Positions 5,961 through 55,273 are shown, counted from the first letter of the stretch. The stretch is 64,000 nucleotides of DNA from an uncultured Actinomycetota bacterium (GCA_963815335.1 CAWFGL010000006.1:161610-225609), one strand, 5' to 3'. Translations and numbers: made by a program. Notes: generated by a model not told the origin, from the letters alone.

Positions 5961-5976
5961 GTGAGAGCGCTCTCAC
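5961..5976. promoter_or_regulatory. LacI-family operator (proximal)
   Basis: Perfect 16-bp palindrome GTGAGAGCGCTCTCAC with the LacI-type AGCGCT core, just downstream of the predicted -10. Confidence 0.8.
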
Positions 5977-6008
5977 ACCTCTCACGCCCAACCGGTAGGA
6001 GTAGCACC

Positions 6009-7286: not shown

Positions 7287-7295
7287 CCAACCACA

Positions 7296-20500: not shown

Positions 20501-20743
20501 CCCGACCACGTCGAGCTCGCCCGCGCCACGACGGAGGAGAAGGCGTCCCAGCTCCGGCGGGTCCGGGACTTCCAGTCGGTGCACGCGACCGAGGCCGAGG
20601 CCGCGATCGCCCGGCTCAAGGACGCCGCGACGTCCGGCGAGAACGTGTTCGCCGTCCTCATGGACGCCGCCCGGGTCTGCTCGCTCGGCCAGGTGACCGA
20701 GGCGTTCTTCGAGGTCGGCGGCCAGTACCGTCGCAACGTGTGA
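17600..20743 (+). CDS. icmF: Fused isobutyryl-CoA mutase / MeaB-like GTPase
   Basis: N-terminal B12-binding LFDGHD, P-loop [22 protein letters not shown], then the mutase barrel ([34 protein letters not shown]). Confidence 0.95.
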
Positions 20744-21453
20744 CAGCAAGCCGCGTCGTCAGCCTGGTCCCGTCGATCACGGAGGCGCTGGTCTCGGTAC
20801 GCCGCGACGCGGTCGTGGGGGCGACGGACTGGTGCACGCACCCGGCTGACCTGGACGACTCGCTCGAGGCGCGGGTCCGCGGCACGAAGAACCCCGACCT
20901 CTCCGCGATCCGCGCGCTCGAGCCCGACGTCGTGATCGCGAACAAGGAGGAGAACCGCGAGCTCGACGTCCGGCGGCTCCGCGAGTCGGGTGTCCGGGTC
21001 GAGGTCACCGACATCGAGACCGTCCCGCAGGCGGTCGAGACGTTCGCGCACCTCTTCGACGACGTCCTCGGCTGGGAGCGTCCGGGCTGGCTCGCCGAGG
21101 CCGAGCGGCTCTGGTGCGGGCCCGCTCCCCCGGTCACGCGGACCGTCGCGATCGCGATCTGGCGCGACCCGTGGATGGTGGTCGGCCGGGACACGTTCAC
21201 CGGCGACCTGGTCCGGCGGCTCGGCTGGCAGAACGTGTACGCGGGTGAGGCCGACCGCTACCCGACGGTCGACCTCGACGACCTCGACGCGGCAGGCGCC
21301 GACGTGGTCCTGCTGCCCGACGAGCCCTACGTCTTCACCGCGGACGACGGCCCCGAGGCGTTCTCCCGGACGCCGGCGCAGCTGGTCAGCGGACGGCTGC
21401 TCACCTGGTACGGCCCGTCACTCGTCGAGGCCCACGACGCACTGCGGCTATGA
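20740..21453 (+). CDS. Helical-backbone metal/cobalamin-binding protein (BtuF-like), no signal peptide
   Basis: [17 protein letters not shown]-like RGTKNPD, ANKEEN, LPDEPY and TWYGP motifs; GTGA-coupled to icmF. Confidence 0.8.
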
Positions 21454-24063: not shown

Positions 24064-24138
24064 GCGGATCTCCCCCAACGAACGGACCCGGCAACCGCCG
24101 GGCGCTTGCACCCTACGCCTCCCCTTTACCCTCCAAGC

Positions 24139-24816
24139 GTGGAGATGATCCTGGGCGTGACACCCGGCCCGCTGACCGCCGACGAGGTCGTGGCCGCCTA
24201 CCCGTGGCCGGCGGAGGGCCGCTGGGTGCGGGCGATGATGGTGACCACGCTCGACGGCGCCGCGTCGGGGCCGGACGGGCTGAGCGGCTCGATCTCGGGC
24301 GAGGCGGACAAGTCGGTCTTCGACGCCGTGCGACGCGAGGCCGACGCCGTCCTGATCGGCGCCGGCACGATGCGCGCCGAGCGCTACGGGCCGTTCCGGA
24401 ACCGGGCGCGCCTGGCGATCGTGAGCAGGTCGCTCGACCTGCCCTGGGACGAGCCCGTGTTCAGCGAGTCCGCGCAACGGCCGTTGATCCTGACCGCCCA
24501 CGACACCGACACCTCGGCCGTGCCGGACACCTGCGAGGTCGTGACCGTCGACGACAGCCCGGCCGCGTGCCTCGACGCCCTCGAGCAGCGCGGCCTGCAC
24601 CGGATCGTCTGCGAGGGCGGGCCGACCCTCCTCCGCGACCTGGTCGCCGCGGGGCTCGTCGACGAGGCCGACATCACCGTCTCCCCGACGTTCACCGGGA
24701 CCGCCCACAGCCCGGAGACACCGAGCCTGTCCTCGGTCGTCGACTGGGACCTCGAGCACCTCCTCACCGAGGACGGCTTCCTCATGGGCCGCTACGTCCG
24801 CCGCGGTGCCCGGTGA
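24139..24816 (+). CDS. RibD C-terminal / dihydrofolate reductase-like protein
   Basis: TLDGA, ADAVLIGAGT and VCEGGPTL motifs; GTG 6 nt after TACCCT. Confidence 0.85.
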   Translation: MEMILGVTPGPLTADEVVAAYPWPAEGRWVRAMMVTTLDGAASGPDGLSGSISGEADKSVFDAVRREADAVLIGAGTMRAERYGPFRNRARLAIVSRSLDLPWDEPVFSESAQRPLILTAHDTDTSAVPDTCEVVTVDDSPAACLDALEQRGLHRIVCEGGPTLLRDLVAAGLVDEADITVSPTFTGTAHSPETPSLSSVVDWDLEHLLTEDGFLMGRYVRRGAR

Positions 24817-25706
24817 TCTCGCTCGAGTCGCTCGCCGCGCTCGCCGCCGCGTACCCCGACGACGTGGGTCTCCCGGTGGCGCCGCTGGAGATCCGCGGCC
24901 GGGTGTTCGACACCGACCGGAGCGCCGTGGTGATGAGCGTCGTGAACCTGTCGTCGGACTCGACGTACCGGACCAGCATCGCCCCGACGGTCGAGGCCGC
25001 GATCAGCCGCGGTCGCGTGCACGCCGCCCAGGGTGCGGACGTGGTCGACGTGGGTGCCGAGTCCACGACCACCAGGGCCGACCGGGTGTCCGGCCCCGAC
25101 CAGATCGCCCGGCTCGTCCCTGTCGTGGAGGCCCTGGCCGCCGACGGGATCCTGGTGTCGAGCGAGGCCTACGACGTCGATGTCGTGCGCGCGACGCTGG
25201 CGGCCGGCGCCGCCGTCGTGAACCTCACCGGCTCCGCGGGTGACGACCCGGTCTTCGCGCTCGCCGCCGAGCACGGGGCGGCCGTGGTCCTCTGCCACGT
25301 CGAGGGCGAGAACCCGCGCGACCTCGACGGCGCCGACCTGTCGGCCGATCCGGTCCCGCGGATGCTCGACGGGTTCGGTCGCCGGCTCGAGCGCGCCCGG
25401 GAGCTCGGCGTGACCGGCCTCGTCATCGACCCGGGCGCCGGCTTCCACTTCGGCGTCCAGCAGACCCCCGAGGAGCGGCTCGCGCACCAGACCCGGATGC
25501 TGCTCCACGCCTTCCGGCTCCGGCGCCTGGGCGTGCCGGTGTGCCAGTCGGTGCCGCACGGCTTCGCGCTGTTCCAGGACGAGTTCCGCACCGGCGAGGC
25601 CTTCTTCACGGTCCTCGCCCGGCTCGCCGGCGCCGGGATGATCCGCACCCACGAGGTCCCGCGGGTCGTCCCGGTGCTGCAGGCGCTGCGGGAGCTGCCT
25701 ACCTGA
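24813..25706 (+). CDS. Divergent dihydropteroate synthase-like (pterin-binding TIM barrel) protein
   Basis: VMSVVN, GADVVDVGAEST, IDPGAGF and IRTHEV motifs; the canonical SRK lysine is not visible. Confidence 0.75.
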   Translation: MISLESLAALAAAYPDDVGLPVAPLEIRGRVFDTDRSAVVMSVVNLSSDSTYRTSIAPTVEAAISRGRVHAAQGADVVDVGAESTTTRADRVSGPDQIARLVPVVEALAADGILVSSEAYDVDVVRATLAAGAAVVNLTGSAGDDPVFALAAEHGAAVVLCHVEGENPRDLDGADLSADPVPRMLDGFGRRLERARELGVTGLVIDPGAGFHFGVQQTPEERLAHQTRMLLHAFRLRRLGVPVCQSVPHGFALFQDEFRTGEAFFTVLARLAGAGMIRTHEVPRVVPVLQALRELPT

Positions 25707-26471
25707 GGAACATCCGCACCGCGCGCGCCAGCGCGGCGGCGTAGCGCGCCCGGCCGTCCGCGGACGTCATCACGCCGGCGTCGCCGGGGTTCTTCATGTT
25801 GCCGAGCTCGACCATCACGGTGGGGACGTCCGACAGGTTGAGCGTGCCGAGGTCGGAGCGGAAGTCGAGGCCGTCGCCGCCGGCGATGTAGGTCGCGTCG
25901 ACGAAGTCCTTCTTGCGGAGGGACGCCCGGGTGAGCAGCGCCAGCCGACGGGAGGGCTTGAAGATGTCGTCGGTCCAGGGCGCCCGGTCGGTCGGCGCGA
26001 TGACGTGGAAGCCGTGGGCACCGGCGGCGAAGGAGCCGTCGCCGTGGACGCTGATCTTGAGGTCGGCCGGGATCCTGTTGCCGGTCCTGCCGCGCTTGTC
26101 GACGCACGGACCCCAGCGCTTCTCGCTGTTGACCTTGCGGGTCAGCACGACACGGGCGCCGAGCTTCTCGAGCTTGGTCTTGAGCCGGAGCGAGACCCGC
26201 CAGGCGAACGTCGCCTCGGCGTAGCCGCCCCGCGTGGCGGTCCCGGTCGTGTTGCACGGCTTGGTGAAGCCGCCCGCCGGCACCGGCGCGTTGATCTGGC
26301 TCGGGAAGTGGTGGTTGCCCAGCTGGTGTCCGGGGTCGATGACGACCGTCCGGCCGGCGAGCAGCCCCTCGTGGTGGAGCCGTCCCGTGCCAGGGCCGTG
26401 CGGTCCTCGGCGTACGCCGGACCAGCGGCCAGCAGCGCGACCGCGACGACTCCGGCGAGGACGACCTTCAC
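25699..26471 (-). pseudogene. N-acetylmuramoyl-L-alanine amidase (Amidase_3), frameshifted as assembled
   Basis: Signal peptide MKVVLAGVVAVALLAAGPAYAE is in one frame; VVIDPGH, YAE, ISVHGD and MVELGN are in another. One extra G in the run at 26365-26368 restores the frame. Confidence 0.8.
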
Positions 26472-27472
26472 TCGTAGCCCAGGATCTCCTGGCGCTTCTC
26501 GCCCCAGGCGAGCGCCGAGGCGATGGCGTCCTCGAGCGTCAGCTCGGTCCGCCAGCCGAGCAGCTCGGCCGCCGTGTCGACGTTCGCGTACGCGCCGACG
26601 GCGTCGCCGGGACGGGGCGGGGCCTCGGTGATCGGCACCGGCCGGCCGAAGACGTTCTCGAACGCCGTCACGAGCTCGCGGACGGTGGTGCCGTCGCCGG
26701 TGCCGAGGTTGATGACGACGCTCGTCGAGCCGACCTTCGCCAGGACGTCGTCGAACTGCTCGATGGCGCGCACGTGCGCCCGGGCGATGTCCCAGACGTG
26801 GATGTAGTCGCGGATGCCGGTGCCGTCGCGGGTCGGGTGCTCGACGCCGGTGATCGTGAACGAGTCCTTCTGGCCGCGGGCGGCCATCACCAGCTGGCCG
26901 AGGACGTGCGACGGCTCCTTGGCGTAGATGCCGGACTCGAGGTCCGGGTCGGAGCCGATCGGGTTGAAGTAGCGCAGGATGATCGCGCGCAGGTCGGTCG
27001 CGGCCGCCATGTCCTGCAGGACCTGCTCCATCATGTGCTTGGTCCGCGCGTACGGCGAGGTGGGGGCCAGCGGGTCGGACTCGACGACCTCGAAGCCCTC
27101 CTTGGGCGCGTACAGGCTGGCCGAGCTGGAGAACAGCACCCGGGGCTTGCCGAGCTGCTCGAGCTGGTCGAAGAGCTCGAGCGACTTGGCGACGTTGTCG
27201 CGGTAGTACTCGTAGGGCTGCTCGACCGACTCCGGCACCACGATCCGGGCTGCCATGTGGATGGTCGCGTCCAGGTCGGGGTGCTCCTCGACGATGCGGG
27301 CGAGCAGGGCCCGGTCGGCGATGTCGCCCTCGTAGAAGATCCGGTCGCGCGCGAAGACCTGGGGGCCGGTGAGGAGCGAGTCGAGGACCACCGGGACGTG
27401 TCCGGCCTGCTCCAGGGCCTTGGCGGTGATCGAACCGATGTACCCGGCGCCGCCGGTGACGAGGACCTTCAT
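26468..27472 (-). CDS. galE: UDP-glucose 4-epimerase
   Basis: MKVLVTGGAGYIGS, FSSSA, PYARTK, LRYFNPIG and GTGIRDYIHV motifs. Confidence 0.92.
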   Translation of the reverse strand: MKVLVTGGAGYIGSITAKALEQAGHVPVVLDSLLTGPQVFARDRIFYEGDIADRALLARIVEEHPDLDATIHMAARIVVPESVEQPYEYYRDNVAKSLELFDQLEQLGKPRVLFSSSASLYAPKEGFEVVESDPLAPTSPYARTKHMMEQVLQDMAAATDLRAIILRYFNPIGSDPDLESGIYAKEPSHVLGQLVMAARGQKDSFTITGVEHPTRDGTGIRDYIHVWDIARAHVRAIEQFDDVLAKVGSTSVVINLGTGDGTTVRELVTAFENVFGRPVPITEAPPRPGDAVGAYANVDTAAELLGWRTELTLEDAIASALAWGEKRQEILGYE

Positions 27473-27595: not shown

Positions 27596-29347
27596 ATGCC
27601 TGAGACCGTCTCGGTCACCTCCGCGACCCGTCGCGGCCTGCACCGCGCCGTCGCCGGCGGGCTGGCCACCGCGGCCGTGGCACCCCTGCTGGCCGCCCAG
27701 GACGCGCACGCCGCGCCCGGCGAGGGCACACCGTTCGCCCGGCCGAAGCGCAAGTGGCACCGGTGCAAGGTGCACCGCAGGCACACCTGCTGGCGGGCGC
27801 GGACCTGCAAGCACCGCAAGCACAAGCCGCACGCCCCGGACCCGGAGCCGCCGCAGGTGGAGCTGCCCGACCCGCCGGACCCGCCTGACCCCGAGCAGCC
27901 CCAGGTGCCCACCGAGCTGCCGAGCGCGGCCGCGCTGCACCTCGCCAGCCGCTTCACCTACGGCATGACGCCCGCCCTGCACGCGGAGATGCAGTCCTTC
28001 AGCAGCGACGCGGCCTGGTTCGCGGCCCAGCTGCAGCCGGCGACCGTCCCTGACCAGGTCGCCGACGGGTTCCAGTCGTGGTGGCTGTCGCTGGACCTCG
28101 ACGCGCCCACCCTCTGGAGGCGCGACCAGGACAAGGTCGAGGCGACCTGGGTGGCGATGGCCAACTACCAGCGCTGGTGCCTCATGCGCCGGATCTACTC
28201 CAAGCGCCAGGTGCTCGAGGTCGTCACCGAGTTCTTCGAGAACTACCTCCACGTGCCGGTCCACGACGACGGCGTCTTCGGGTTCCGGGCGGCGTACGGG
28301 AAGCTCATCCGCTCGCACGCCCTCGGTCGGTTCGACCAGATGCTCGTCGCGGCGATCACGCACCCCGCCATGGGGACCAGCCTGGACAACGCCAGCTCCA
28401 CGAAGTCCGCGCCCAACGAGAACCTCGGCCGGGAGCTCCTCGAGCTGCACACCGTGGGCCGCGGGAACCACACCGAGGACGACGTCAAGAACTCGGCGCG
28501 GATCCTGACCGGCTACCGGGTCGACATGTGGCGCACCTGGAACTCCTGGTACGACGCGCCGAGCCACTGGACCGGTCCCGTCAAGGTCCTGGACTTCACG
28601 CACGCCAACACGGCCACGGACGGACGTCCCGTCGCCGAGGCCTACCTCACCTACCTGGCGCACCACCCGGCCACCGCCCGGCGGCTCGCCAGGAAGCTGG
28701 CCGTCCGGTTCGTCTCCGACGCACCGTCGGACGCCCTGGTCCAGCACCTCGCCGACGTCTACCTGGCGAACCAGACCGCGATCGTGCCGGTCCTCCTGGC
28801 CCTGGTCGCGCACCCGGAGTTCGCGGCCGCCGCCGGCGCCAAGGTCCGCACGCCCACCGACGACGTCGCGGCCACCTTCCGGGCCCTGGACGTCGCCGTG
28901 GCCCGCCCGGTCACCGGCGACTCGACGGCCAACACGATGCTCTACCAGGCCCAGAACATCGGCCAGACGCCGTTCGGCTGGGCCCGTCCCGACGGCCAGC
29001 CCGAGACCGGCGGTGCCTGGTCGTCGGCCTCGCGGATCCTCGCGTCCTTCGAGACCCACTACGCGATGTGCGGCGGCTGGTGGCCCAAGCAGGACGCGAC
29101 GTACCACCCGCTGACCTCCTGGGTGCCGCTGACCGGCACGCAGTCCATGACCTTCGAGGCGCTGGTCGACCACCTGTCTCGCCGGCTCCTCTGCCGGCCG
29201 GCCGACGCCCGGGTGGTCGACGCGTGCTGCCTCGCGAGCGGCGTCACCCGGACGACCGCGATGACCCTCAACCACGCCGTCGTCCGGTGGGGCATGCCGG
29301 TGCTCCTCACCACCGTCCTCGACAGCCCCGAACACATGAGCCGGTGA
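27596..29347 (+). CDS. DUF1800 family protein, TAT-exported
   Basis: TRRGL twin-arginine signal; YLDN-like SLDNASS, PNENLGRELLELHTVG, YTEDDV-like HTEDDV and HPATARRLARKLAVRFVSD motifs. Confidence 0.88.
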   Translation: MPETVSVTSATRRGLHRAVAGGLATAAVAPLLAAQDAHAAPGEGTPFARPKRKWHRCKVHRRHTCWRARTCKHRKHKPHAPDPEPPQVELPDPPDPPDPEQPQVPTELPSAAALHLASRFTYGMTPALHAEMQSFSSDAAWFAAQLQPATVPDQVADGFQSWWLSLDLDAPTLWRRDQDKVEATWVAMANYQRWCLMRRIYSKRQVLEVVTEFFENYLHVPVHDDGVFGFRAAYGKLIRSHALGRFDQMLVAAITHPAMGTSLDNASSTKSAPNENLGRELLELHTVGRGNHTEDDVKNSARILTGYRVDMWRTWNSWYDAPSHWTGPVKVLDFTHANTATDGRPVAEAYLTYLAHHPATARRLARKLAVRFVSDAPSDALVQHLADVYLANQTAIVPVLLALVAHPEFAAAAGAKVRTPTDDVAATFRALDVAVARPVTGDSTANTMLYQAQNIGQTPFGWARPDGQPETGGAWSSASRILASFETHYAMCGGWWPKQDATYHPLTSWVPLTGTQSMTFEALVDHLSRRLLCRPADARVVDACCLASGVTRTTAMTLNHAVVRWGMPVLLTTVLDSPEHMSR

Positions 29348-30639
29348 CCCCCATGACCTCCGACCGGACCCACGAGACCTGCTGCGACGAGTTCGCCCGC
29401 ACCGACCGCGCCCGGCTCAACCGGCGCAGCTTCCTGCGCACCGCCACCGTCCTCGGCGGCGCCGCGGCCGTCTCCACCGTGCACGGCACCGCGTTCACCT
29501 CGACGTCGTACGCCGCCGCGCCGGTCGAGCGGGTGCTGGTGGTGCTGTCCATGCGGGGCGCCTGCGACGGGCTCAGCCTCGTGGTCCCCCACCAGGACCC
29601 GGTCTACTACGCGGCCCGGCCGAGCATCGCGGTGCCGTACACCCGGCTGCTCGAGCCGGACGACCACTTCGGCCTGCACCCGGCCCTGGCGCCGCTCGTG
29701 CCGTGGTGGACCGCCGGCAAGATGGCGGCCGTCCACGCGACCGGGCTGCCCAGCCCGAACCGCTCCCACTTCTCCGCGATGGAGGAGGTCGAGGACGCCG
29801 ACCCCGGGTCCGACAAGCGCGTGGGCTGGCTCAACCGGCTGATCGGGCGCAACGGCACGGGCTCGCCGATCGAGGCGATCCAGTTCGGCGGGGGTGTGCC
29901 CAACGCCGCCGTGTCCGGGCCGGAACCGGTCCTCGTGACCTCCGACGCCGACTCGGTCACCCTGTCCGCGGCGGACGACGCGGCGTCGAGGCTGCGGCGC
30001 CACCAGTCGATGTCCCGTATGTGGGAGGACCTGCCCGGACCGCTCGGGGGCGGGGCACGCACCGCGCTCGACGTCGTCGAGCAGTTCGCCCCGGTGACGA
30101 CCGGCTCCGCGACGCCCGCCAACCAGGCGGTCTACCCGACCAGCTCCGACCTGGCCAAGGCCCTCGCCTCGGCCGCGCGCACCATCCGGGCCGACATCGG
30201 CGCCGAGGTGATCACCGTCGACCACGGCTCCTGGGACCACCACACCTGGATCGGGCAGCCCGACAACGGCAACCTGCGCCGGATGGCCGACGAGTTCGCC
30301 CTGAGCGTGGCGGCGTTCATGACCGACCTCGGTCCGCTCGCGGACCGGGTGACCGTGGTGACGCTCAGCGAGTTCGGCCGCCGGGTCAAGGAGAACGCCA
30401 ACCAGGGTCTCGACCACGGCTACGGCAACGTGATGTTCCTGCTCGGCGCCGGGGTGAAGGGCCGCGCGTACTACGGCACCTGGCCGGGGCTGACCAACAC
30501 CACCGACGCCGACCTCCTGGTGACCACGGACTACCGCAGCGTGCTCAGCGAGGTCGTCACGACGCGTCTCGGGGCCTCCTCGGCCCAGGTGTTCCCCGGC
30601 TTCAGCCCCGAGACCGTCGGGGCCATGTCCAGCCTCTGA
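29344..30639 (+). CDS. DUF1501 family protein, TAT-exported
   Basis: NRRSFL twin-arginine signal; LSMRGACDGLS, NRSHFSA, GWLNR, WDHH, SEFGRR and GLDHG motifs. Confidence 0.88.
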   Translation: MTPMTSDRTHETCCDEFARTDRARLNRRSFLRTATVLGGAAAVSTVHGTAFTSTSYAAAPVERVLVVLSMRGACDGLSLVVPHQDPVYYAARPSIAVPYTRLLEPDDHFGLHPALAPLVPWWTAGKMAAVHATGLPSPNRSHFSAMEEVEDADPGSDKRVGWLNRLIGRNGTGSPIEAIQFGGGVPNAAVSGPEPVLVTSDADSVTLSAADDAASRLRRHQSMSRMWEDLPGPLGGGARTALDVVEQFAPVTTGSATPANQAVYPTSSDLAKALASAARTIRADIGAEVITVDHGSWDHHTWIGQPDNGNLRRMADEFALSVAAFMTDLGPLADRVTVVTLSEFGRRVKENANQGLDHGYGNVMFLLGAGVKGRAYYGTWPGLTNTTDADLLVTTDYRSVLSEVVTTRLGASSAQVFPGFSPETVGAMSSL

Positions 30640-30753
30640 GGCCCCTCAGCGCCTTCGTCCTGCTGGAGGTTCGAGCTCGGTCCGGGCCGGGGGCGACCTC
30701 CGCGGACGCCCACACCGGCCCGGACCGTGGGGATCGGCTTTCACCCATCCCGA

Positions 30754-30808
30754 TGTGACTCCCCCCAGAGTCACACCACGCAAACGTCTGTCGTCACGCG
30801 GGAGTTAC
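30754..30808. promoter_or_regulatory. Palindrome and GTNAC pentamer array upstream of the GH6 gene
   Basis: TGTGACTC-N6-GAGTCACA (30754-30775) and GTCAC-N6-GTTAC (30793-30808). Confidence 0.4.
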
Positions 30809-30900
30809 GCAGGAACTCCTCCTGTTTCGAGCGGTCCAGACCGGATGTGACGGGTGGGGCGCCAAGGCACTCCTGTGTCGTCCTGCGGCGGGCCCACCGC

Positions 30901-31914
30901 GTGACCGAGACTGTGCTGGTGCTCCCCCGCCGACGATCGCGCCGCCTCGCCGCCCTCGGCGTGGCGGCGGCGCTGGTCGCTGGCGGCGGCACCCTCGTCG
31001 CCCGCCACGTGCTCGACGACCCGGACGACGAGAACCCGTTCGCCGGCCGCCCCCTCCTGGTGACTCCCGAACCCCGGCTGGACGCGGCCGCGCAGCAGGC
31101 GGCCGCGGACGGGGACCAGCGGCGGAGCGCCCAGCTGGAGCGCCTGGCCGACGTGCCCACGGGCACCTGGCTGCTGCCCGAGCAGCACCCCACGCCCGCC
31201 GACGTGGGCGCGTACGTCACCGACGTCGTCCGGCGGGCGGCGGGGCAGGACGCCCTGGCCCTCCTGGTCGTGTACGCGATCCCGGACCGCGACTGCAGCG
31301 GCGGCCTGTCGAGCGGCGGGCTGACCGCCGAGGAGTACGTCCCGTGGGTGCGCGCCGTCGCCTCGGCCGCCGCGGACGAGCACGCGGTCGTCGTGCTCGA
31401 GCCGGACGCCCTCGTCAGCGCGGACCAGTGCGGCCTTGCCGACGCCCGGACCGCGCAGCTGGGCGACGCGGTCGCAGCCCTGGCGGACGCCGGCGCCGCG
31501 ACGTACGTCGACGCCGGCCACTCGGCCTGGCGGGACGCCGACGAGGTGGCCGACCTGCTCGAGGCCGTCGGCGTCCAGCGCGTCCGGGGGTTCTCCGTGA
31601 ACGTCGCGAACTACCAGCCCACCGCGGTCGAGAGGCAGTGGGCCGAGCAGGTCAGCACGGCCGTCGGGGGCGCGCACTTCGTGGTCGACACCGGCCGCAA
31701 CGGCGCCGCCGGCGGGCGCGTCGACGACTGGTGCAACCCACCGGGCCAGGCCCTGGGCAGCGAGCCAGGCGTCGTCACGGACGACACGCGGCTCGACGCG
31801 CTGCTGTGGGTCAAGCCGCCGTGGGAGAGCGACGGCACCTGCCAGGGCGGCCCGGAGGCCGGTCAGCTGTGGCTCGAGCGGGTGGTCGACCTGGCCACCG
31901 CCGCCGGGTGGTGA
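30901..31914 (+). CDS. GH6 endoglucanase-like protein, N-terminal membrane anchor, no CBM
   Basis: YAIPDRDC, VLEPD, YVDAGH, GFSVNVANY, VVDTGRNG, WCNP and ESDG motifs of GH6. Confidence 0.9.
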   Translation: MTETVLVLPRRRSRRLAALGVAAALVAGGGTLVARHVLDDPDDENPFAGRPLLVTPEPRLDAAAQQAAADGDQRRSAQLERLADVPTGTWLLPEQHPTPADVGAYVTDVVRRAAGQDALALLVVYAIPDRDCSGGLSSGGLTAEEYVPWVRAVASAAADEHAVVVLEPDALVSADQCGLADARTAQLGDAVAALADAGAATYVDAGHSAWRDADEVADLLEAVGVQRVRGFSVNVANYQPTAVERQWAEQVSTAVGGAHFVVDTGRNGAAGGRVDDWCNPPGQALGSEPGVVTDDTRLDALLWVKPPWESDGTCQGGPEAGQLWLERVVDLATAAGW

Positions 31915-31977
31915 ACCTCTCGACCGACGTGGGCCAAACCCGGCACGTCCAGACCAGTTCCGACCTACCATCGACAC

Positions 31978-32851
31978 GTGAGTGAGACCCGCGTCGCAGT
32001 GGTGATCGAGGACGAGCCGGAGCTGCGAGAGCTGACCGAGATGATCCTGACGCAGTCAGGGTTCGCGGTCGTGACCGCCGGTGACGGCCCGAGCGGCATC
32101 CAGGCGGTCCGCGAGCACACCCCGCTCCTCACGACGCTCGACCTGAACATGCCGGGGATGGACGGCTTCGCGGTCGCCAAGCAGCTGCGCAAGTTCAGCG
32201 AGACCTACCTGATCATCATCACCGGCCGGGCGGACGAGATCGACGTCGTGACCGGCTTCGAGGCCGGTGCCGACGACTACCTGGTCAAGCCGTTCAGCCC
32301 CCGCGAGCTGCGTGCGCGTGCCGACTCGATGCTCCGTCGGCCCCGCCGGATGCAGGGCTTCGCCACCGGCGAGCCCGAGCCCGAGCCGGAGCCGGAGTCC
32401 TGGGCCAGCGCCGCGGCCCGCGAGCTCCGCGAGAGCCCGCTGGCGCCGATGGCCGCCGCCGCGGTGGCCGAGATGGCGACGGCCGCAGCCGAGCATCCTC
32501 GCGGACCCGGCAGCCGCGACCGAGCCCGGCCGGGTGCTGGGCACCAACGGCCTGACCATGGACCTGGCGACGGGTGTCACCACCCTGCACGGGCAGCGTG
32601 TCGACCTCTCCGACGCCGAGCGTGAGCTGCTGGCCAGCCTGCTCTCGACGGGCCGCCGGGTCCGCAGCAAGGCCGACCTGGTGCTGGCGCTGCGCGGCCA
32701 GCCCTACGTCACGTCGTACTTCGTCAAGGAGATCGACAAGAAGAACGTCGACGCCCACATCTCGAGCCTGCGCGCCAAGCTGGGTGACGACGGCGCGACG
32801 CCCAAGTTCATCGAGACGGTCCGCGGCGTCGGCTACCGGCTGGCCTCCTGA
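31978..32851 (+). pseudogene. OmpR-family response regulator, frameshifted as assembled
   Basis: Receiver domain (IEDE, LDLNMPGMDG, KPF) in the 31978 frame; winged-helix domain (IETVRGVGYRL) in the +1 frame. Codon bias switches at about 32476-32494. Confidence 0.8.
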
Positions 32852-32864
32852 CCCACGGCAGCCG

Positions 32865-33584
32865 TCAGTTGGCGTTGACCGGGATGTCGGCGACCACGGT
32901 CTCGTCGTCGGAGGCGAAGATCGCGATCGGCACCGACTGCGTCACCTCGCGCCTGACGAACTTGCGCGACCCGGCGCGGGTCTCGATGCTCACGGTGGCG
33001 GTCAGCTCCAGCGTCACCCCGATCGTGTCGCCGGCGACGGTCCCGATGCGCTGGTTGCGCAGCTCGAAGGCGCCCTTGGGCGAGGTGATGAGCATGCCGA
33101 ACCGGGTGGTCAGCGGCTCGGGGTCGAAGGTCGCCCGCGAGGCCGGGGTGTCGAGCTCGTACGGGGTCTCGGTCGCGCCGCCCGCGCTGGTCGTGGTCGC
33201 CGACGTCACGACGATCCTGCTGAGGTAGACCTTCCGCTTGGTCTCGAACGGGTCGCGCAGCTCGCGGTCGAGGTCGTAGGCCTGGAAGGTCACCGTGAAG
33301 AACTTGTCACCGCGCGGGTACCACTCGTTGGTCCGGGGCGTCGCCTTGGTGGGGTAGAGCGTGTAGACGAAGTCCACGCCCGACGCGCCGTCCACCTCGA
33401 TGTGCGACTGGAACGTCCCGTCGCGGGTGAACTGCGAGTCGAACACCGGGGCCGCCGTCGTCGACGGGGCCTCGGCCGGGGGCGGTTCGGCGTCGTCGCC
33501 CAGCACCGAGCACGCGGACGCCGACGTCGTCGCCAGCACGGCGACCACGACGGCAGCGAGCCGGCGGACACCCCTGACGCTCAT
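32865..33584 (-). CDS. Uncharacterised secreted lipoprotein
   Basis: Signal peptide with SASAC lipobox, Pro/Ala linker and beta-rich body; ATGA-coupled to the GT2 gene. Confidence 0.8.
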   Translation of the reverse strand: MSVRGVRRLAAVVVAVLATTSASACSVLGDDAEPPPAEAPSTTAAPVFDSQFTRDGTFQSHIEVDGASGVDFVYTLYPTKATPRTNEWYPRGDKFFTVTFQAYDLDRELRDPFETKRKVYLSRIVVTSATTTSAGGATETPYELDTPASRATFDPEPLTTRFGMLITSPKGAFELRNQRIGTVAGDTIGVTLELTATVSIETRAGSRKFVRREVTQSVPIAIFASDDETVVADIPVNAN

Positions 33585-35062
33585 GCCTTGAACCCGCGGT
33601 AGCGGCGCAGCACCTTGAGCGCCATCCACGCCGTCTGCAGGACCGTGATCACGCCCAGGACCGGCCACGCCACCTCCAAGAAGCTCGACCTCGCACCGAC
33701 GGAGAGCTGCGCCCAGATCGCGCTCACCGCCGCCAGGAACACCAGCAGCGCCAGGAACGGGTAGAGGTACGACGACCCCTTGCCCCGCTCGGCACGCGCC
33801 TGCGCCGCCCAGTTGTCGGACTGGTGGCTGCCGAAGAACTTCGCCCAGGCGCGGACGAAGTGACCCATCCGCACCCACATGTAGACCTCGGCCGGGACCA
33901 GGGTCGCGGCGAACAGGTAGTCCCGCTTGTGCGCGAACGCCATCGACCTGGCGACCTTGACGTTCAGCGCGATCGCGACGACCGGCGGGATCAGCCACTG
34001 GAGCTCGAAGACGTACGCGTCGATCGACAGCGATCCGGACAGCAGCAGGAGGAAGCCGAGCCGGGTGACGATGTTCAGCACCATCGAGAGGTGCTCGAAC
34101 CAGCGGATCCGCAGGTTGGGGTGCAGCGGCTGGCCGCGGGTGTCGCCGCGCTGTCCGGGCCACATCAGGTCGATCGCGCCGTAGTTCCACTTCACCTGCT
34201 GGGCGTCCAGGCTGCGCAGGGTGGTCATGCCGCCCACGTGCGCGTACGCCGACGCGCTGATCTTGGTGAGGAAGCCGGCGCTCTTGATCTGCAGCGAGAG
34301 GAGCGAGTCCTCGACCTCGCTGTCGTTCACCCACGGCGTGCGCTGGTGGCTGTCGTCCAGGACCTTCCGCAGTGCTCGCGTCGAGAAGATCGAGAACTGG
34401 CCGCCGAGCACCGCCATGTTGCGGCCCTTGAGCAGGTTCTGCATGTTGAAGGCGGAGAACTGCGCCCGCTGGCCGGCGATCAGGAACTTGCCCACCGCGC
34501 CCTCGAGGGCGCTGTCGTCGATCGAGTAGATCGCCGAGATCCCGCCGATCCGGTCGTCGCTCGAGATCTCGTCCACGAGCATCTCCAGCGCGTTGGGCTC
34601 CGGGGTGGTGTCGCCGTCGACGCCGAGCAGGTAGTCCATCGACTCGACCAGCGAGTAGCCGTAGTTGAGGGCCCCGACCTTCTTGTCGGGGTTCTTGCCG
34701 ATGTCGTGCACGTAGACGACGGTGTGCTGCTCGCCGCTGGGCGTCATCCGGGTGTGCGGACCCGCGTAGTGGCTGGCGATCTCGACCGAGTCGTCGGTCG
34801 TGTTGTTGATGATGACGTGGATGGAGTCCGGCAGCCGGGTCTGCATCAGCAGCGAGTCGATGACCCCGGCGATCGTCTCGGCCTCGTTGTACGCAGGGAT
34901 GACGCAGCCGACCGTGGGGCGCTGCTCGGGGATGGCCGCGACCGCGTCGAGGAACTCCTCGGCGTACGCGCTCAGCGAGGGGTCCTGGGTCAGGATGTAC
35001 GGGTTGCTCGGGGCAGCCCGGTCAGTTCCGCTCGCGGTCGCACGAGACCCGTCCAGTGTCAC
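33581..35062 (-). CDS. Processive-type family 2 glycosyltransferase with C-terminal TM helices
   Basis: IPAYNE, KKVGALN, VDGDT (DxD), VED and QQVKW (QxxRW variant); 4-5 C-terminal TM segments. Confidence 0.9.
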
Positions 35063-35130
35063 CCGCCCAGTGTCGTCAATCCTGGGCTAGTCCACCGGCG
35101 AACGGCGAAACTCGAGCCTCCGGATCCCGA

Positions 35131-36375
35131 TCAGGGCGGTGGCGTGTGGCACTGCTCACCGTCCTGCTGGTCGTCCGGCAGGTGCGGCAGCAGGACGTCG
35201 CCCAGCGGGGTCGCGTAGCCGGTGGTCACCGCGACCGGCGCGCGCGTGGCGGCGGCGTACTTGCAGTAGTGCGTGCCCTGGCCCAGGTAGGGCGAGTACG
35301 GGCCGGGCCCCGCCCGCACCGTGAGGTCGCTGCGCGTGAGCAGCTCGCCACCGAGCGTGAAGGTGCCGTCGGCGGCGGAGGTGGCGGAGTCGAGGACCCT
35401 GCCCTGGCCGTCGACGAGCGTGACCGAGCCACCCGACAGCGGGTACGACGGGTCGTTGCCGTCGACGACCCGGCCGGAGACCCAGGCGCCGCGCTGGGTG
35501 AGCCGGGCGCTGCCGAACGACGTCCGGCCGGCCTTCACCTTGCCCTTCACCAGGACGGTGGCGCCGACGTAGCCGCCGCCCGCGGGCACGACGAGGCGGT
35601 ACCTCCCCGGGAAGAGACCCTGCAGGGTGACGGTCCCGCGGCGGAGCCTCGCGGTCCAGAACTGGCCGCTCTTGCGGCTGACCGCCGTGACGAACGCGGT
35701 GCCCGGGTACGAGGCGCCGCCGGCGTACACGTCGACGATCATCCGGCCCGCCTTCGTGGTGAGCCCGATGTCGGTCGGCGTGTAGCTGCCGGCCTTGCGC
35801 TTGCGCAGGTAGGTGCTCTTGCCGACCCACTGCTTCCTGCGGTCGTAGGTGAAGACGGAGTAGGTGCCCGGCGGGAGCCCGCCGAGGGCGTACCGGCCCA
35901 GCTTGTCGGCCCGCACCTCGAAGGAGTTCTCGTCGGTGTTGGCGGCCACGACCCGCGCGCCGCCCGCCGGCTTCCCGCCCGCCCGCACGGTGCCGCCGAT
36001 CGCGGCGCCGCGCTTCATCCGGACGCTCCTCAGGGTCGTGTCGCCGGCGCGCACGGTGACGGTGACGTCGGCCGGGTAGTACTTCGTGACGTCGTACGCC
36101 GGACGCTGGTCGACGAACTGGAGGTGGTAGGTGCCCGGCTGCAGAGACAGGGAGTACCCGCCGCCGTACGCCTTGCGGGAGCCGAGGTACGTCCAGTCCG
36201 CGGCGAACCACAGCAGCTTGACCTCCGGCGAGGTGTCACCGCCCTGACCCGTGATGGTCCCGCGGACCCGACCGGTCGCCGCCGACGCCGGCGGGGCGTG
36301 GAGCGAGGGGAGCAGGCACGCGAGCACGAGGACGGCGAGCGCGAGCAGCCGTCGCTGCGACCTGGTCGTCACCAT
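35131..36375 (-). CDS. Secreted protein with repeated carboxypeptidase-regulatory-like beta domains
   Basis: Signal peptide ending ASAA; recurring G(R/A)xxGTV and LxPGTY motifs. Confidence 0.7.
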
Positions 36376-36450
36376 GCCACGACCATAAGTAGCGATCGTC
36401 GCGCCCGGGCTGGAACGGCGAACTCGACACGCTGCTGCGATGATCTGGCC

Positions 36451-37431
36451 GTGCCCACTGCCCTCATCACCGGGATCACCGGCCAGGACGGCCTGTACCT
36501 CGCCGAGCTGCTGCTCGCCAAGGGGTACGACGTCCACGGCGTGATCCGGGGGCAGAACAACCCCAAGCGCGACCTGGTCGAGCACCTGCTGCCGGACGTC
36601 CGGCTGCACAACGGCGACCTCACCGACATGTCGAGCCTGATCCGCGCGCTCCGCGACTCGGACCCCGGCGAGGTCTACAACCTCGGCGCGGTCTCCTTCG
36701 TCGCCTACTCGTGGGAGAACGCGCACCTCACCACCGACGTGACCGCCAAGGGCGTCCTCAACATGCTCGAGGCGATCCGGCTGCACACCGGCGACGACCC
36801 CGCCGGCGTCCGGTTCTACCAGGCGTCCAGCTCGGAGATGTTCGGCAAGGTGCACGAGTCGCCGCAGCACGAGCGCACCCTGCTCTGGCCCCGCTCGCCG
36901 TACGGCGTGAGCAAGGTCTACGGGCACTACATGACGATCAACTACCGCGAGTCGTACGGCATGCACGCGTCCTCCGGGATCCTCTTCAACCACGAGTCGC
37001 CGCGGCGCGGCCAGGAGTTCGTGACCCGCAAGGTCAGCCAGGCCGTGGCCCGCATCTCGCTGGGCCTCCAGGACGACCTGGTGCTCGGCAACCTCGACGC
37101 CGAGCGGGACTGGGGCTTCGCCGGTGACTACGTCGAGGCGATGTGGCTGATGCTCCAGCAGCCGGTCGGCGACGACTACGTGGTCGCGACGGGCGAGACC
37201 CACTCGATCCGCGAGCTCGTCGACGTGGCGTTCTCGCACATCGGGATCGACGACTGGACGCCGTACGTCAAGCAGGACAAGCGCTTCATGCGGCCGGCCG
37301 AGGTCGACCACCTCGTCGGCGACGCCACCAAGGCCCGCGAGGTGCTGGGCTGGGAGCCGAAGGTCGGGTTCGACGAGCTGGTCCGGATGATGGTCGACGC
37401 CGACATCTCCGCCCAGAGGGCCGGCTGGTGA
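36451..37431 (+). CDS. gmd: GDP-mannose 4,6-dehydratase
   Basis: [36 protein letters not shown] and [10 protein letters not shown] motifs. Confidence 0.93.
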
Positions 37432-38375
37432 CCCTCGCCTTCCTGACGGGCATCGGTGGGCAGGACGGCAGCTACCTCGCCGAGCGGTTGCTGGACGAGG
37501 GCGTCGAGGTGCACGCGCTGGCCCACGAGGCCGAGCCCGCACCGGACTGCCCCGGTGTCGTGCTGCACACCGGCGACCTCACCCGCGTCGACGAGGTCCG
37601 CGCGCTCCTGCTCGACCTCGCCCCGGACGAGGTCTACAACCTCGCCGCCCTGAGCTCGGTCGCGCAGTCGTGGGCCGAGCCCGACCTCACCGCACGGGTC
37701 AACGGCCTCGCCGCCGTGGCCCTGATGGAGTCCGCGCTGCAGGTCCAGGACCGCACCGGCAGGCCGGTCCGGTTCCTCCAGGCCTCGAGCGCCGAGATCT
37801 TCGGCGAGCCGGCCACGAGTCCCCAGGACGAGTCGACGCCGATCCGGCCGGTGAACCCGTACGGCGCCGCGAAGGCCTACGCGCACCTGATGGTCGACGT
37901 CTATCGCCGCCGCGACCTGCACGCGGTCGCCGCGATCCTCTACAACCACGAGTCCCCCCGCCGCCCGGCGCAGTTCGTCACCCGGAAGATCACCTCGACC
38001 GTGGCCGCGATCGCCGCCGGGCGGGCCGACACGCTGGTCCTCGGCAACCTCGAGGCCCGCCGCGACTGGGGCTGGGCGCCGGACTACGTCGACGCGGTCG
38101 TGCGCGCGACCCGGGCCGACGTGGCGCAGGACTACGTGGTGGCGACGGGCGAGGGCCACTCGGTCGAGGACTTCGCGGCCGCGGCGTTCGCGCACGCCGG
38201 GATCGACGACTGGGCGTCGTACGTCGAGGTCGACCCGAGCCTGCTCAGGCCCGCCGACCCGGTCGAGCTGACCGGCGACGCCACCCGGGCGCGGACGGAG
38301 CTCGGCTGGGCGCCCACGGTGGGGTTCGCCGAGCTGGTCGGGCGGATGGTCGACGCGGACCTGGAGTCCGGCTGA
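37428..38375 (+). CDS. Second GDP-mannose 4,6-dehydratase-like protein
   Basis: [32 protein letters not shown] and [10 protein letters not shown] motifs; GTGA-coupled tandem paralog. Confidence 0.85.
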
Positions 38376-38407
38376 GTTTCCTCACCATCTCCGCGGTGGT
38401 CTTGTTT

Positions 38408-38423
38408 TCGAACATCTGTTCTA
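38408..38423. promoter_or_regulatory. Actinobacterial LexA (SOS) box
   Basis: TCGAAC-ATCT-GTTCTA versus the established consensus TCGAAC-N4-GTTCGA; 16 nt upstream of the DUF222-HNH start. Confidence 0.75.
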
Positions 38424-38439
38424 GTAGGCTGGCCGCACG

Positions 38440-39819
38440 ATGACTTCCACGGCCGACCTCCTCCCCGATTCCGCCCCACTGGGGCGGGACCTGCTGGTGC
38501 AGGTGCGTGAGGAGCGGCAGGCCTCGGACCGTGCCGAGATCCGGATCATGGAGCTGGCCGTGGAGTACGCCTACGCGAACCCGGCACTGCCCGGCCAGGA
38601 GGCCTGGGCGCCGACCACGCTCCCGGTGTGGACCGACCCGCACTCCTACGCCACCACGGACGCCGACGAGGTGGAGTGGTACCGGCTCCCCGCGCTGCGG
38701 TGGGACGCCCCGGCCGCGTTCGCCGCCGCGAACGGCATGTCGACCATCGCCGGGAAGGCCGTGATCCGCGACGCCCTGGTCCTCACCCACCGAGCGCCGG
38801 CCGTGCGGGCCGCGATGTGCGCCGGGCAGGTCACCGTGCGGCGGGCCCGCAGGATCGCCGAGCAGCTCCTCGGCCAGCACGACGACGTGTGCCGCTACGT
38901 CAACGACGCCCTGGCCGAGCGCCTCCACGACGGCCGCCCGCTCGGCCCCGTGGTCGCCGAGCGCCTCGTCGAGGAAGCGATGCTCCGGCTGCACGCCGAG
39001 GAACGCGAGCTCGACCAGCTCGAGGCCCTCGACCGGCGCCACGTCACCATCGACCCCGCCTCGATCAACCACCACGGCATCGGCGACCTCGGCGCCCGCC
39101 TGGACTGCGCCGACCTGCTCAACCTCGACGAGAAGGTCGCCGAGCTCGCCGAGGCCATCAAGGACCTCCCCGAGCACGCCCACGAGTCCCTCGACGTCCG
39201 CCGCTCCATCGCCCTGGGGATCCTCGCCGACCCGCCCCGCGCCCAGGCGATCCTCGACGGCCACACCGACGCCAAGCCCACCCGCCGACGCGAGCTCGTC
39301 GCCGACCTGAACCTCACCGAGGCAAGCCTGCTCCTCGGCGACCCCGTCATCACCGACACCGACCTCAAGGCCCACCTCACCCAGGTCATCCAGACCTGGG
39401 TCGGCCGCCACGACATCGCCCTGACCATCAAGCCGGTCCGGCACTGCGGCGGCACCGCCGGCGGCTGCACCCACTGCCCCGCCCACATCGACTGCACCAA
39501 CCACACCCCGCACGCCACCGAGGACTACGTCCCCACCCAGCTGGACCGCACGATCGTCGAGCTCGCCGACCGCCGCTGCGTCCACCCCCACTGCCACCGG
39601 TCAGCCCGCCGCTGCGACTGCGACCACATCACACCCTTCGACACCGGCGGGCCCACCTGCCCCCGATGCAACCTCGCACCCCTGTGCCGACATCACCACC
39701 GACTCAAGACCCACACCGGCTGGCGCTACCAGAAGCTCGGACCACAGACCTACCTCTGGACCGACCCCCACGGACTCCACTACCTCCGCCAACGCGACGG
39801 GACCCGCCAGCTCGAATAG
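38440..39819 (+). CDS. DUF222 / HNH endonuclease domain protein (13E12-repeat-like)
   Basis: C-terminal RCVHPHC...CDCDHI...CPRCNLAPLCRHHHRLKT HNH signature; DUF222-like N-terminus; strongly C-rich 3' half. Confidence 0.9.
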   Translation: MTSTADLLPDSAPLGRDLLVQVREERQASDRAEIRIMELAVEYAYANPALPGQEAWAPTTLPVWTDPHSYATTDADEVEWYRLPALRWDAPAAFAAANGMSTIAGKAVIRDALVLTHRAPAVRAAMCAGQVTVRRARRIAEQLLGQHDDVCRYVNDALAERLHDGRPLGPVVAERLVEEAMLRLHAEERELDQLEALDRRHVTIDPASINHHGIGDLGARLDCADLLNLDEKVAELAEAIKDLPEHAHESLDVRRSIALGILADPPRAQAILDGHTDAKPTRRRELVADLNLTEASLLLGDPVITDTDLKAHLTQVIQTWVGRHDIALTIKPVRHCGGTAGGCTHCPAHIDCTNHTPHATEDYVPTQLDRTIVELADRRCVHPHCHRSARRCDCDHITPFDTGGPTCPRCNLAPLCRHHHRLKTHTGWRYQKLGPQTYLWTDPHGLHYLRQRDGTRQLE

Positions 39820-40180
39820 CCGACATCCGCGCATGCCGATGCGCGACCTCGACGCCACCTGGCGTCATTCTGCGGAAAATGGCGGACGCGCAGCTGTGCC
39901 ATACGACGTAGACGATGGCCAGGATCAAGACTCCGCGCAGGACGCCATCTCCGACTTCTTCGCGGTTGTCGTGCCGTTGCAGGGCAACCCCCGCGATGAG
40001 CGTGATCAGAAGGGCTCCGGCCGTCGCCGCTACCCAGACCTGGTAGTCGGCCACGACGTCGCCAGCGCGGCAGATCAGCAGCCACAGGGAACCGGACCAC
40101 ATGAGGTTGCTCGCGAGAGCGACGAGGACTCCCGTGCGATAGCTCGTCGTCTCACGTATCGCCGCGTCGTCGAATCGCAT
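39704..40180 (-). CDS. Hypothetical membrane protein in a lower-GC patch, 3' end doubtful
   Basis: Three hydrophobic segments; the low-complexity tail overlaps the HNH gene. Confidence 0.4.
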   Translation of the reverse strand: MRFDDAAIRETTSYRTGVLVALASNLMWSGSLWLLICRAGDVVADYQVWVAATAGALLITLIAGVALQRHDNREEVGDGVLRGVLILAIVYVVWHSCASAIFRRMTPGGVEVAHRHARMSAIRAGGSRRVGGGSGVRGGRSRGRSVVRASGSASRCGS

Positions 40181-40383
40181 GCGTCAGTGTGACCGGCCTT
40201 CAGACGTGGTGTCGACCATCCGGAGCTCGCACGCCCCGAATCAAGAAGCGTGCGTAGAAAGGCGGCAGATGACCCGTCGGCGCCCCGATCGCGCGCGATA
40301 TGCCGCCTTTCGAGAACGCCTTGGCACCGGGCAGCCGGACGACGGCCTCCCCGGCGACGTGGAAGTGTCCATGTGCCAGCGAC

Positions 40384-43686
<3,303 letters not shown>

Positions 43687-43690
<4 letters not shown>

Positions 43691-55162: not shown

Positions 55163-55273
55163 GGCCGGATTTGCCGAAGTCCACCACATCGGCCGCGGGA
55201 CACCGCTAGGTTCGCCTGACGTGCTTTGAGGGAGGCACGGGGGGCACACGGGGCGACCAGAGGGAGTGCCCAC

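Follow-up and report, generated by a model that had tools for sequence, protein, structure and literature searches.

We describe a four-gene module in a 64,000-nucleotide stretch of DNA from an uncultured Actinomycetota bacterium (GCA_963815335.1 CAWFGL010000006.1:161610-225609), the whole of which we call the window. The module encodes a family 2 glycosyltransferase (GT2), a lipoprotein, a membrane-tethered family 6 glycoside hydrolase (GH6) and an OmpR/PhoB-family response regulator. These four genes are a conserved, co-mobile unit, and their arrangement goes far beyond chance. The module is conserved across the Nocardioidaceae, where it is near-universal, and in some Microbacteriaceae. Our preferred reading, to which we give a probability of about 0.55, is that it is a synthase-dependent system for a surface beta-glycan, probably beta-1,4-linked, under the control of the response regulator. 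Synthase-dependent exopolysaccharide systems, such as Bcs, Pga, Alg and the Streptomyces Csl system, shape biofilms, envelopes and morphology. We know of little work on such systems in Actinobacteria outside Streptomyces. The Nocardioidaceae are abundant in soil, in the rhizosphere and in pollutant degradation.

In the window the plus-strand genes for the GH6 (30901-31914, 337 amino acids, Pfam PF01341) and the regulator (31978-32851, frameshifted, with Response_reg and Trans_reg_C domains) converge on the minus-strand genes for the GT2 (33581-35062, 493 amino acids, PF00535/PF13641/PF13632) and the lipoprotein (32865-33584, 239 amino acids). The locus has a G+C content of 70-76%, and the real frames were picked out by third-position GC. 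The convergent ends of the regulator and lipoprotein genes are separated by just 13 nt (32851-32865), so there is no space for terminators between them. A preliminary description, made from the sequence alone, had listed these four genes and the ATGA in which the GT2 stop and the lipoprotein start overlap, and a direct reading of the sequence finds each of them at the coordinates given there. It overlooked a fifth gene, probably part of the GT2 transcription unit, which is described below. The organism itself is, on sequence evidence, Nocardioides-like and not a Streptomyces; GT2 homologs at 73-89% identity are overwhelmingly from Nocardioides.

The strongest evidence for the module is its conservation. 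When one genome per species was scanned, 222 proved to encode a GT2 relative; the best 80 loci were taken with 10-kb flanks, and 61 species loci had enough flank for synteny counts. The lipoprotein, regulator and GH6 accompany the GT2 in 55 of these 61, and the regulator is present in every one. Wherever the full set occurs (55/55), the GH6 lies directly upstream of the regulator and in the same orientation. Two of the 61 loci belong to the Microbacteriaceae (Labedella and Leifsonia; L080:5957-13631 and L083:6202-14236) and have no lipoprotein detectable by tblastn. Upstream of their GT2 gene, and divergent from it, is a gene for a lipoprotein of equal size, a distant homolog that aligns over its full length with the Nocardioides family profile (hhalign probability 75%, E 2.5e-5). 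Both loci keep the GT2, regulator and GH6, and add a PAS histidine kinase and a membrane GGDEF protein. The GGDEF domain looks degenerate, and Leifsonia also has a weak Hpt-like open reading frame (ORF).

The surroundings of the module vary. Clustering of all flanking ORFs distinguished a first context of around 50 loci, where the module sits between purE-purK-...-birA-accD5 and maf-fadE, and a second of around 12 loci, where it sits between rplM-rpsI-glmM and coaA-glmS-acpS. The window is a third: one flank consists of rml genes together with two GDP-mannose-dehydratase-like genes, the other of DUF1501/DUF1800 genes. Because the module stays intact across at least three unrelated core-genome contexts, it appears to move as a unit, its genes functionally linked. 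The preliminary description had proposed a cassette whose genes should be found together in other genomes, and the neighbourhood survey found all four in 55 of 61 loci.

In the GT2 an N-terminal GT-A domain, on the cytoplasmic side, precedes the interface and transmembrane helices. The protein carries the motifs DGD149-151, GGQ220, VED250-252 and QQVKW288-292. Its hydrophobic helices all lie after residue ~315, with none at the N-terminus, and about four C-terminal transmembrane helices are predicted. The DxD, ED and QQVKW motifs and exclusively C-terminal helices reported earlier are therefore borne out by both the sequence and a structural model. In the family alignment D149 is invariant and Q288, K291, W292, E251 and D252 are at least 90% conserved, while DxD, (T/V)ED and Q(Q/R)xKW are retained down to 25% identity. 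The family has Lys for the Arg of QxxRW throughout, and the window sequence has Val for the Thr of TED. Since the Lys is kept across the family, QxxKW is a family trait; the variant noticed in this one sequence is real and a family-wide signature. A further conserved loop, NWAAQAxAERG at ~415-426, follows the third interface helix, and its W418-x2-Q421-x2-A424-E425 residues are at least 90% conserved. In BcsA, the hyaluronan synthases (HAS) and the chitin synthases, a gating loop follows the third interface helix. The order of the helices and the positively charged C-terminus suggest that the loop of the GT2 is cytoplasmic.

An AlphaFold2 (AF2) model of the GT2 (predicted local distance difference test score, pLDDT, 86; predicted TM-score, pTM, 0.82) has the predicted fold of the membrane-embedded processive family 2 synthases of the hyaluronan, chitin and cellulose type. 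Its best PDB neighbour by Foldseek is the Chlorella virus hyaluronan synthase (7sp7, E 2e-15, TM-score 0.55), and further neighbours include the yeast, Candida and Phytophthora chitin synthases and BcsA. The top 36 matches are all HAS, chitin synthase or BcsA chains (E 2e-15 to 4.5e-11, TM-scores ~0.45-0.59). At the level of sequence profiles, the family aligns with BcsA over the glycosyltransferase and transmembrane regions (profile positions 32-463, E ~1e-9), and BcsA is its sole full-length match. The strongest sequence-profile match in the PDB is the mannosyltransferase PcManGT of Pyrobaculum calidifontis (6YV7, E 3.5e-12), and it covers the GT-A core only. The best NCBIfam match, PgaC_IcaA (TIGR03937), fails with 46.1 bits against a cut-off of 422.3, and the Joint Genome Institute (JGI) names relatives PgaC. 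Searches of Pfam and NCBIfam with the GT2 returned no PilZ domain, no BcsA model and no chitin-synthase Pfam family.

The GT2 family is small, with 84 of 1.84 billion representative proteins below E 1e-30, many of them fragments. Full-length members at a greater distance (25-44% identity) are found not only in Microbacterium, Kineococcus, Planctomonas and Jatrophihabitans but also, as single genes, in phages of Lactobacillus and on a conjugative plasmid of Lacticaseibacillus. The phage proteins (P0422-P0424, from Lactobacillus phages Lbab1, Lb338-1 and T25) and the product of the plasmid gene (L086:5932-7416, beside an IS5 element on the conjugative plasmid pLPCN-1 of L. paracasei) show ~26-28% identity and carry QRKKW, TED, GGQ and the W..Q..AE loop. 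Their occurrence as single genes on such elements suggests a synthase or modifier of surface glycans that needs no partners and travels with mobile DNA. A link to the Pediococcus GTF beta-glucan synthase was considered and dropped, as tblastn against plasmids returned one distant Lacticaseibacillus GT2 and no GTF plasmids. The same search gave no match on an actinobacterial plasmid, and plasmid-borne mobility of the module was set aside.

The GH6 is a clear member of its family (PF01341, 196.8 bits against a cut-off of 27, E 9.5e-58, profile positions 5-300 of 305), and Pfam finds no carbohydrate-binding module (CBM) in it. The N-terminus consists of RRRSRR followed by a hydrophobic anchor, as expected from the membrane-anchored, CBM-less enzyme previously described. 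The catalytic motifs PDRDC, EPDAL and ESDG are present and are kept in nearly all homologs from the cluster. Those homologs always have an N-terminal hydrophobic anchor, and ~60% have a lipobox. The nearest solved structure is CelA1/Cel6 of Mycobacterium tuberculosis (1UOZ, E 2e-55, residues 44-336), and the protein is also close to endo-type Cel6A. A precedent for such an enzyme beside a synthase is the Streptomyces CslA-GlxA-CslZ apical glycan system (with LpmP), in which CslZ is a CBM-less GH6 and putative lipoprotein encoded next to the synthase CslA (PMC9040799).

Upstream of the GH6 lies an intergenic region (30640-30900, plus strand), which from the sequence we presume to be the promoter of the GH6 and regulator genes. 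It contains no CebR-like box within 3 mismatches, and CebR-like palindromes occur elsewhere in the window, at 5862 (1 mismatch) and 5962 (2 mismatches); both points agree with the preliminary description. The two boxes precede genes for a solute-binding protein, permease-sized ORFs and a GH1 beta-glucosidase (5862-10593), which together look like a cebEFG-bglC-type cellobiose operon. The upstream region of the GH6 also holds a perfect inverted repeat, TGTGACTC-N6-GAGTCACA (30754-30775), with a third ATGTGAC copy ~80 nt downstream. We rejected TGTGACTC-N6-GAGTCACA as a conserved operator, as none of the 57 other regions upstream of a GH6 contains it.

What polymer might such a synthase make? 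From these sequences the simplest guess is a product like beta-1,4-glucan, given that the partner enzyme is a GH6 and that the profile match to BcsA takes in both the catalytic and the membrane part. A polymer based on N-acetylglucosamine (GlcNAc), that is chitin-, hyaluronan- or poly-N-acetylglucosamine (PNAG)-like, could be made by the same architecture, with the GH6 cutting beta-1,4 bonds of peptidoglycan rather than the product. The top structural neighbours are hyaluronan and chitin synthases, and the PgaC_IcaA match and the JGI naming point the same way, but the former reaches only 46 of the 422 bits needed, no chitin-synthase Pfam family matches, and BcsA alone gives a sequence-profile match over the full length. 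One clade carries the module between glmM and glmS; that site, however, holds a minority of the loci and is an ordinary core-genome region, most copies being found at accD5-maf. CslZ, which is also a CBM-less and tethered GH6, breaks down peptidoglycan in vitro, and glycan deposition depends on it (PMC9040799). That said, characterized GH6 enzymes are overwhelmingly beta-1,4-glucanases, and the module has no deacetylase and no GH18/19/20 gene. Taken together, we regard a GlcNAc-based product as unlikely.

A slightly less probable explanation again is that the GT2 exports nothing. It would then be a "minimal cellulose-synthase-like" transferase adding sugars to an acceptor linked to lipid or wall (for instance a glycolipid, a lipoprotein or a wall glycopolymer), while the GH6 and regulator would serve wall remodelling. 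The roughly four, solely C-terminal helices would suit such an enzyme. So would the strong sequence match to PcManGT 6YV7 and the Foldseek TM-scores of 0.59-0.63 when normalized to PcManGT, although the sequence match is confined to the GT-A core and over the whole chain the closest structures are those of processive synthases. Q(Q/R)xKW, which binds the acceptor, and (T/V)ED, both of them hallmarks of processive synthases, also run through the whole family. The single genes in Lactobacillus phages and on a plasmid are in a typical setting for surface-glycan modification, but a standalone copy fits a self-sufficient synthase equally well, as with the Chlorella virus HAS. Lastly, the module in the window adjoins GDP- and dTDP-deoxysugar genes and an Amidase_3 gene, but these nucleotide-sugar neighbours are unique to the window genome.

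We now return to the beta-glycan synthase reading and the lipoprotein, its least familiar component. The signal peptide of the protein ends in a lipobox whose Cys25 is invariant in 27 homologs (consensus L-S-G-C). It matches no family in Pfam or NCBIfam. We found 462 homologs, which are 60-77% identical in Nocardioides and Aeromicrobium, and which share the invariant motifs FTRDGTFQSH, PTKxTPRTNEW, TFDPEP and TSPKGAFELRNQ. The AF2 model (pLDDT 79) is predicted to be all-beta, and has no structural neighbour in the PDB at E<1e-3. The in-frame [AG]TGA overlap between GT2 stop and lipoprotein start, first noticed as an ATGA in the window, recurs in 52 of 79 loci, and in the others the lipoprotein starts a few tens of bases downstream. 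Judging from this gene overlap, the lipoprotein is translationally coupled to the GT2.

The overlooked fifth gene encodes a secreted CarboxypepD_reg/prealbumin-like repeat protein (35131-36375, minus strand, 414 amino acids). It is located 68 nt 5' of the GT2 on the same strand. The protein has a signal peptide ending in ASA and matches PF13620 with 62.6 bits, along with weaker fn3_3 and SpaA matches. A gene of this kind lies 5' of the GT2 in ~14 related loci, and in N. aquaticus it overlaps the GT2 start by 4 nt. It accompanies the module only in the window's clade and a few Aeromicrobium-type loci, and in the former it probably heads the GT2 operon.

The relatives of the window point to how the synthase might be controlled. 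Forward copies of CTTGAG occur 5' of the GT2 in 61 of 83 loci, compared with 3-5 in shuffled sequences and 4 in reverse orientation. Distances between copies peak at 11, 22-23, 33-34 and 44-45 bp, and the array has the consensus ATCTTTGGGGTT-N-GTCTTGAGG-N9-CAGACTGG (examples are found in L020, L078 and L085:6885-6915, where L numbers denote the loci compared). As direct repeats of (A)TCTTGAG(G), the copies lie 40-210 nt 5' of the GT2 start (L004-L083, L085), followed by a CA(G/C)ACTGG box. The last repeat ends ~9 bp upstream of the CAGACT, a -10-like box, in a layout like that of a pho box. Direct repeats phased by one helical turn and ~9 bp from a -10-like box are an arrangement familiar from activators of the PhoB/OmpR type.

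The distribution of the repeats follows that of the regulator. They are present in Aeromicrobium, Labedella and Leifsonia, and in Microbacterium enclense, where the GT2 is 44% identical and only the regulator adjoins it. They are absent from Kineococcus, where the GT2 stands alone with no regulator. CTTGAG is not enriched 5' of the GH6. The regulator, presumably transcribed with the GH6, may thus control the synthase operon through CTTGAG(G) as a candidate operator. The preliminary description had called the regulator an orphan of the OmpR type. The OmpR type stands, but the regulator looks dedicated to the module, because the 11-bp-phased repeats are found 5' of the GT2 where a regulator adjoins, and in the window it is frameshifted.

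The frameshift deserves further description. The Response_reg (95.5 bits) and Trans_reg_C (61.2 bits) domains lie in different frames, and the tblastn match splits likewise. A +1 shift near 32485 (32470-32500) separates the receiver domain from the winged helix, the two being joined by a long Pro/Ala-rich linker. At 32485 the metagenome contigs X2 and X4 (~95% identity to the window) are one base shorter than the window, and removing this base in silico gives an uninterrupted regulator of 290 amino acids. The closest relative, L087, whose GT2 is 89% identical and whose genomic context is that of the window, has an intact regulator of 289 amino acids, and homologs in the related loci are intact too. 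A metagenome run that seems to hold the window's own strain (X1) is identical where covered, and its contigs do not extend over 32296-32600. The source of the frameshift is a strain-specific mutation or recent pseudogenization on the one hand, or an assembly error on the other. Read through, the regulator scores ~140-150 bits against the MtrA, RpaB, CseB and PhoB models, below every NCBIfam equivalog cut-off. Neither the window nor L087 has CTTGAG repeats 5' of the GT2 or 5' of the CarboxypepD_reg gene. With the regulator frameshifted and the repeats absent, these findings suggest that the control circuit has decayed or been rewired in the window's lineage.

A chance meeting of a nutritional cellulase unit (GH6 and regulator) with an unrelated GT2-lipoprotein pair would suit the classically cellulolytic nature of GH6 enzymes, the two separate convergent transcription units and the 4 of 61 loci that lack a GH6, but is very improbable given that the set of four is kept in three unrelated contexts and in two bacterial families, that this GH6 is CBM-less, tethered and free of a CebR box when the window's cellobiose operon has two, and that the regulator-associated repeats lie 5' of the GT2 and not of the GH6.

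If the module is a surface beta-glycan system, it might work as follows. The GT2 would polymerize a beta-linked glycan from a uridine diphosphate (UDP)-sugar at the cytoplasmic face and thread the chain out through its own C-terminal helices. The lipoprotein, on the outer leaflet, would be the extracytoplasmic partner of the synthase, in a role like that of BcsB, GlxA or PgaD. The tethered GH6 could trim or release the nascent chain, or open the wall for it, as has been proposed for BcsZ and CslZ. The synthase operon would be controlled by the OmpR-type regulator, presumably on one transcript with the GH6, through binding to the 11-bp-phased CTTGAG(G) repeats. The preliminary description had argued for a distinct polysaccharide machine, and parts of this have held up well: the cassette is conserved, the fold is that of processive enzymes, and the module falls outside BcsA, PgaC and CslA-GlxA. 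Its other proposals, a beta-glycan product, a lipoprotein in place of the accessory subunit and a GH6 that trims or releases the polymer, are conjectural, as are the subunit roles set out above.

Several observations weigh against this model. For every member of the family, polymer and roles are read from sequences and predicted structures. With about four C-terminal transmembrane helices and none at the N-terminus, the GT2 is predicted to have fewer than BcsA or HAS, and may not form a complete channel. Its best sequence-profile match in the PDB, in the GT-A part only, is the non-exporting "minimal cellulose-synthase-like" PcManGT, and the Foldseek TM-scores are moderate, at ~0.55. By its best structural matches and the JGI names, the GT2 is as close to synthases of GlcNAc polymers as to those of glucans. 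CslZ, the nearest analogue of the GH6, has no demonstrated cellulase role and acts on peptidoglycan in vitro (PMC9040799). Four of the 61 species do without a GH6. Binding of the regulator to the repeats is suggested by their periodicity, position and co-occurrence, and the window itself has neither the repeats nor an intact regulator.

The module resembles the Bcs, Csl and Pga systems in how it would work, but it belongs to none of them. One close parallel is CslA-GlxA-CslZ. Each has a GT2 of the processive type with a CBM-less, tethered GH6 encoded beside it on the other strand, an extracytoplasmic accessory protein whose gene shares a transcript with the synthase gene, and a GH6 that is no nutritional cellulase. 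Streptomyces CslA is BcsA-like, with N-terminal helices. By this description the GT2 of the module, which carries QxxKW, would differ in having no such helices. The neighbourhood of the module also lacks the GlxA copper oxidase and a lytic polysaccharide monooxygenase. We found neither a GlxA-like nor a PilZ domain in the window genes scanned, and no GlxA-like domain in the gene tables read for related loci, so that the earlier observation of "no GlxA, no PilZ" holds for the genes scanned. In the place of GlxA, the accessory protein of the module is a small lipoprotein outside known families, predicted to be a beta-sandwich, and its GH6 is presumably co-transcribed with an OmpR-type regulator and has CelA1 as nearest solved relative.

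The BcsA-BcsB-BcsZ system shares the logic of a synthase with a periplasmic partner and an endoglucanase. The profiles align over the glycosyltransferase and transmembrane regions, the model superposes on BcsA, and the D, DxD, (T)ED and QxxRW-type motifs correspond in part. However, the module has no PilZ domain, no BcsB-like gene in its neighbourhood and, in Nocardioides, no cyclic di-GMP (c-di-GMP) module. Its hydrolase is a GH6 and not a GH8, the N-terminal transmembrane helices are missing, and K replaces R in QxxRW. The class I HAS, chitin synthase and NodC enzymes are the best structural neighbours and have a similar size of ~500 amino acids, and the distant GT2 members that occur as single genes may likewise work alone. 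Yet identity to these enzymes is just 12-15%, and the GT2 of the module lacks N-terminal helices and has lipoprotein and GH6 partners. PgaCD/IcaAD is similar in that the GT2 is translationally linked to a small accessory protein, and PgaC_IcaA is the best NCBIfam match. In contrast to it, the module has no PgaB- or IcaB-type deacetylase, and its accessory protein is a secreted lipoprotein rather than a small integral membrane protein. PcManGT shares a GT-A domain followed by C-terminal helices only, but the GT2 of the module is 140 amino acids longer and has both QxxKW and the conserved loop after the third interface helix.

For CelA1 of M. tuberculosis (Rv0062), we know of no equivalent neighbourhood of GT2, lipoprotein and response regulator. 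The two GH6 enzymes have the same catalytic motifs, and CelA1 likewise comes from a non-cellulolytic actinobacterium. CelA1 has been tied to biofilm cellulose (PMC7952908, PMC10816823), and M. tuberculosis forms cellulose-containing biofilms with no homolog of BcsA or BcsB (PMC7952908). The module bears on the question of where mycobacterial biofilm cellulose comes from, and would offer a lead for finding non-canonical glucan synthases.

This raises a bolder possibility, which we offer tentatively and think rather less likely to hold than to fail. The GT2 family could be an unrecognized actinobacterial class of beta-1,4-glucan synthase, marked by QxxKW, by C-terminal helices only and by a W-x2-Q-x2-AE loop at the position of the gating loop. 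In such a class a lipoprotein of novel fold would replace BcsB or GlxA, a phospho-relay regulator acting on CTTGAGG repeats would take the place of c-di-GMP and PilZ, and a tethered GH6 like CelA1 and CslZ would complete the system. If true, it would serve as a template in the search for glucan synthases still missing from actinobacteria whose matrix is cellulose-like but which have no BcsA. The module unites an uncharacterized GT2 clade, a lipoprotein without a family, a GH6 related to CelA1 and a regulator with a predicted operator. It is a testable model for glycan synthesis, export, processing and regulation in a monoderm, non-filamentous actinobacterium that does without c-di-GMP/PilZ, BcsB and GlxA. 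Our searches of the full-text literature turned up the Streptomyces and mycobacterial work and no description of the module, in keeping with the earlier view that the cassette is undescribed.

Some further features of the locus and window are recorded here. A search for sigma-70-like promoters gave no match, and a terminator search gave four weak terminator-like sites, none of them convincing. One weak terminator-like hairpin for the minus-strand unit falls within the coding region of the regulator (32756-32743). A riboswitch or other RNA element was considered and set aside, as Rfam over 29500-37000 at E<=1 returned a spurious miRNA match only. RNA sequencing (RNA-seq) data gave low-share metatranscriptome matches only, which are unusable as support.

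Beyond the CarboxypepD_reg gene the module adjoins a nucleotide-sugar cluster (36400-43690) with two tandem GDP-mannose-4,6-dehydratase-like genes, rmlA, rmlB and a fused rmlC-rmlD. These nucleotide-sugar flanks are unique among the 84 loci compared. Within the cluster is a protein of 459 amino acids with no match in Pfam or NCBIfam (38440-39819). Directly upstream of the GH6 is a DUF1800 and DUF1501 pair with a twin-arginine (Tat) signal on the latter (27596-30639), and the same pair lies beside the module in L087. Further upstream are an Amidase_3 gene (25699-26538), a reprolysin-like metalloprotease of 1184 amino acids (21448-25002) and a fused B12-binding/MeaB GTPase/methylmalonyl-CoA-mutase protein of 1047 amino acids with an IcmF-like architecture (17600-20743). 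On the far side of the window, a protein of 1651 amino acids carries an M1 peptidase domain (55226-60181).

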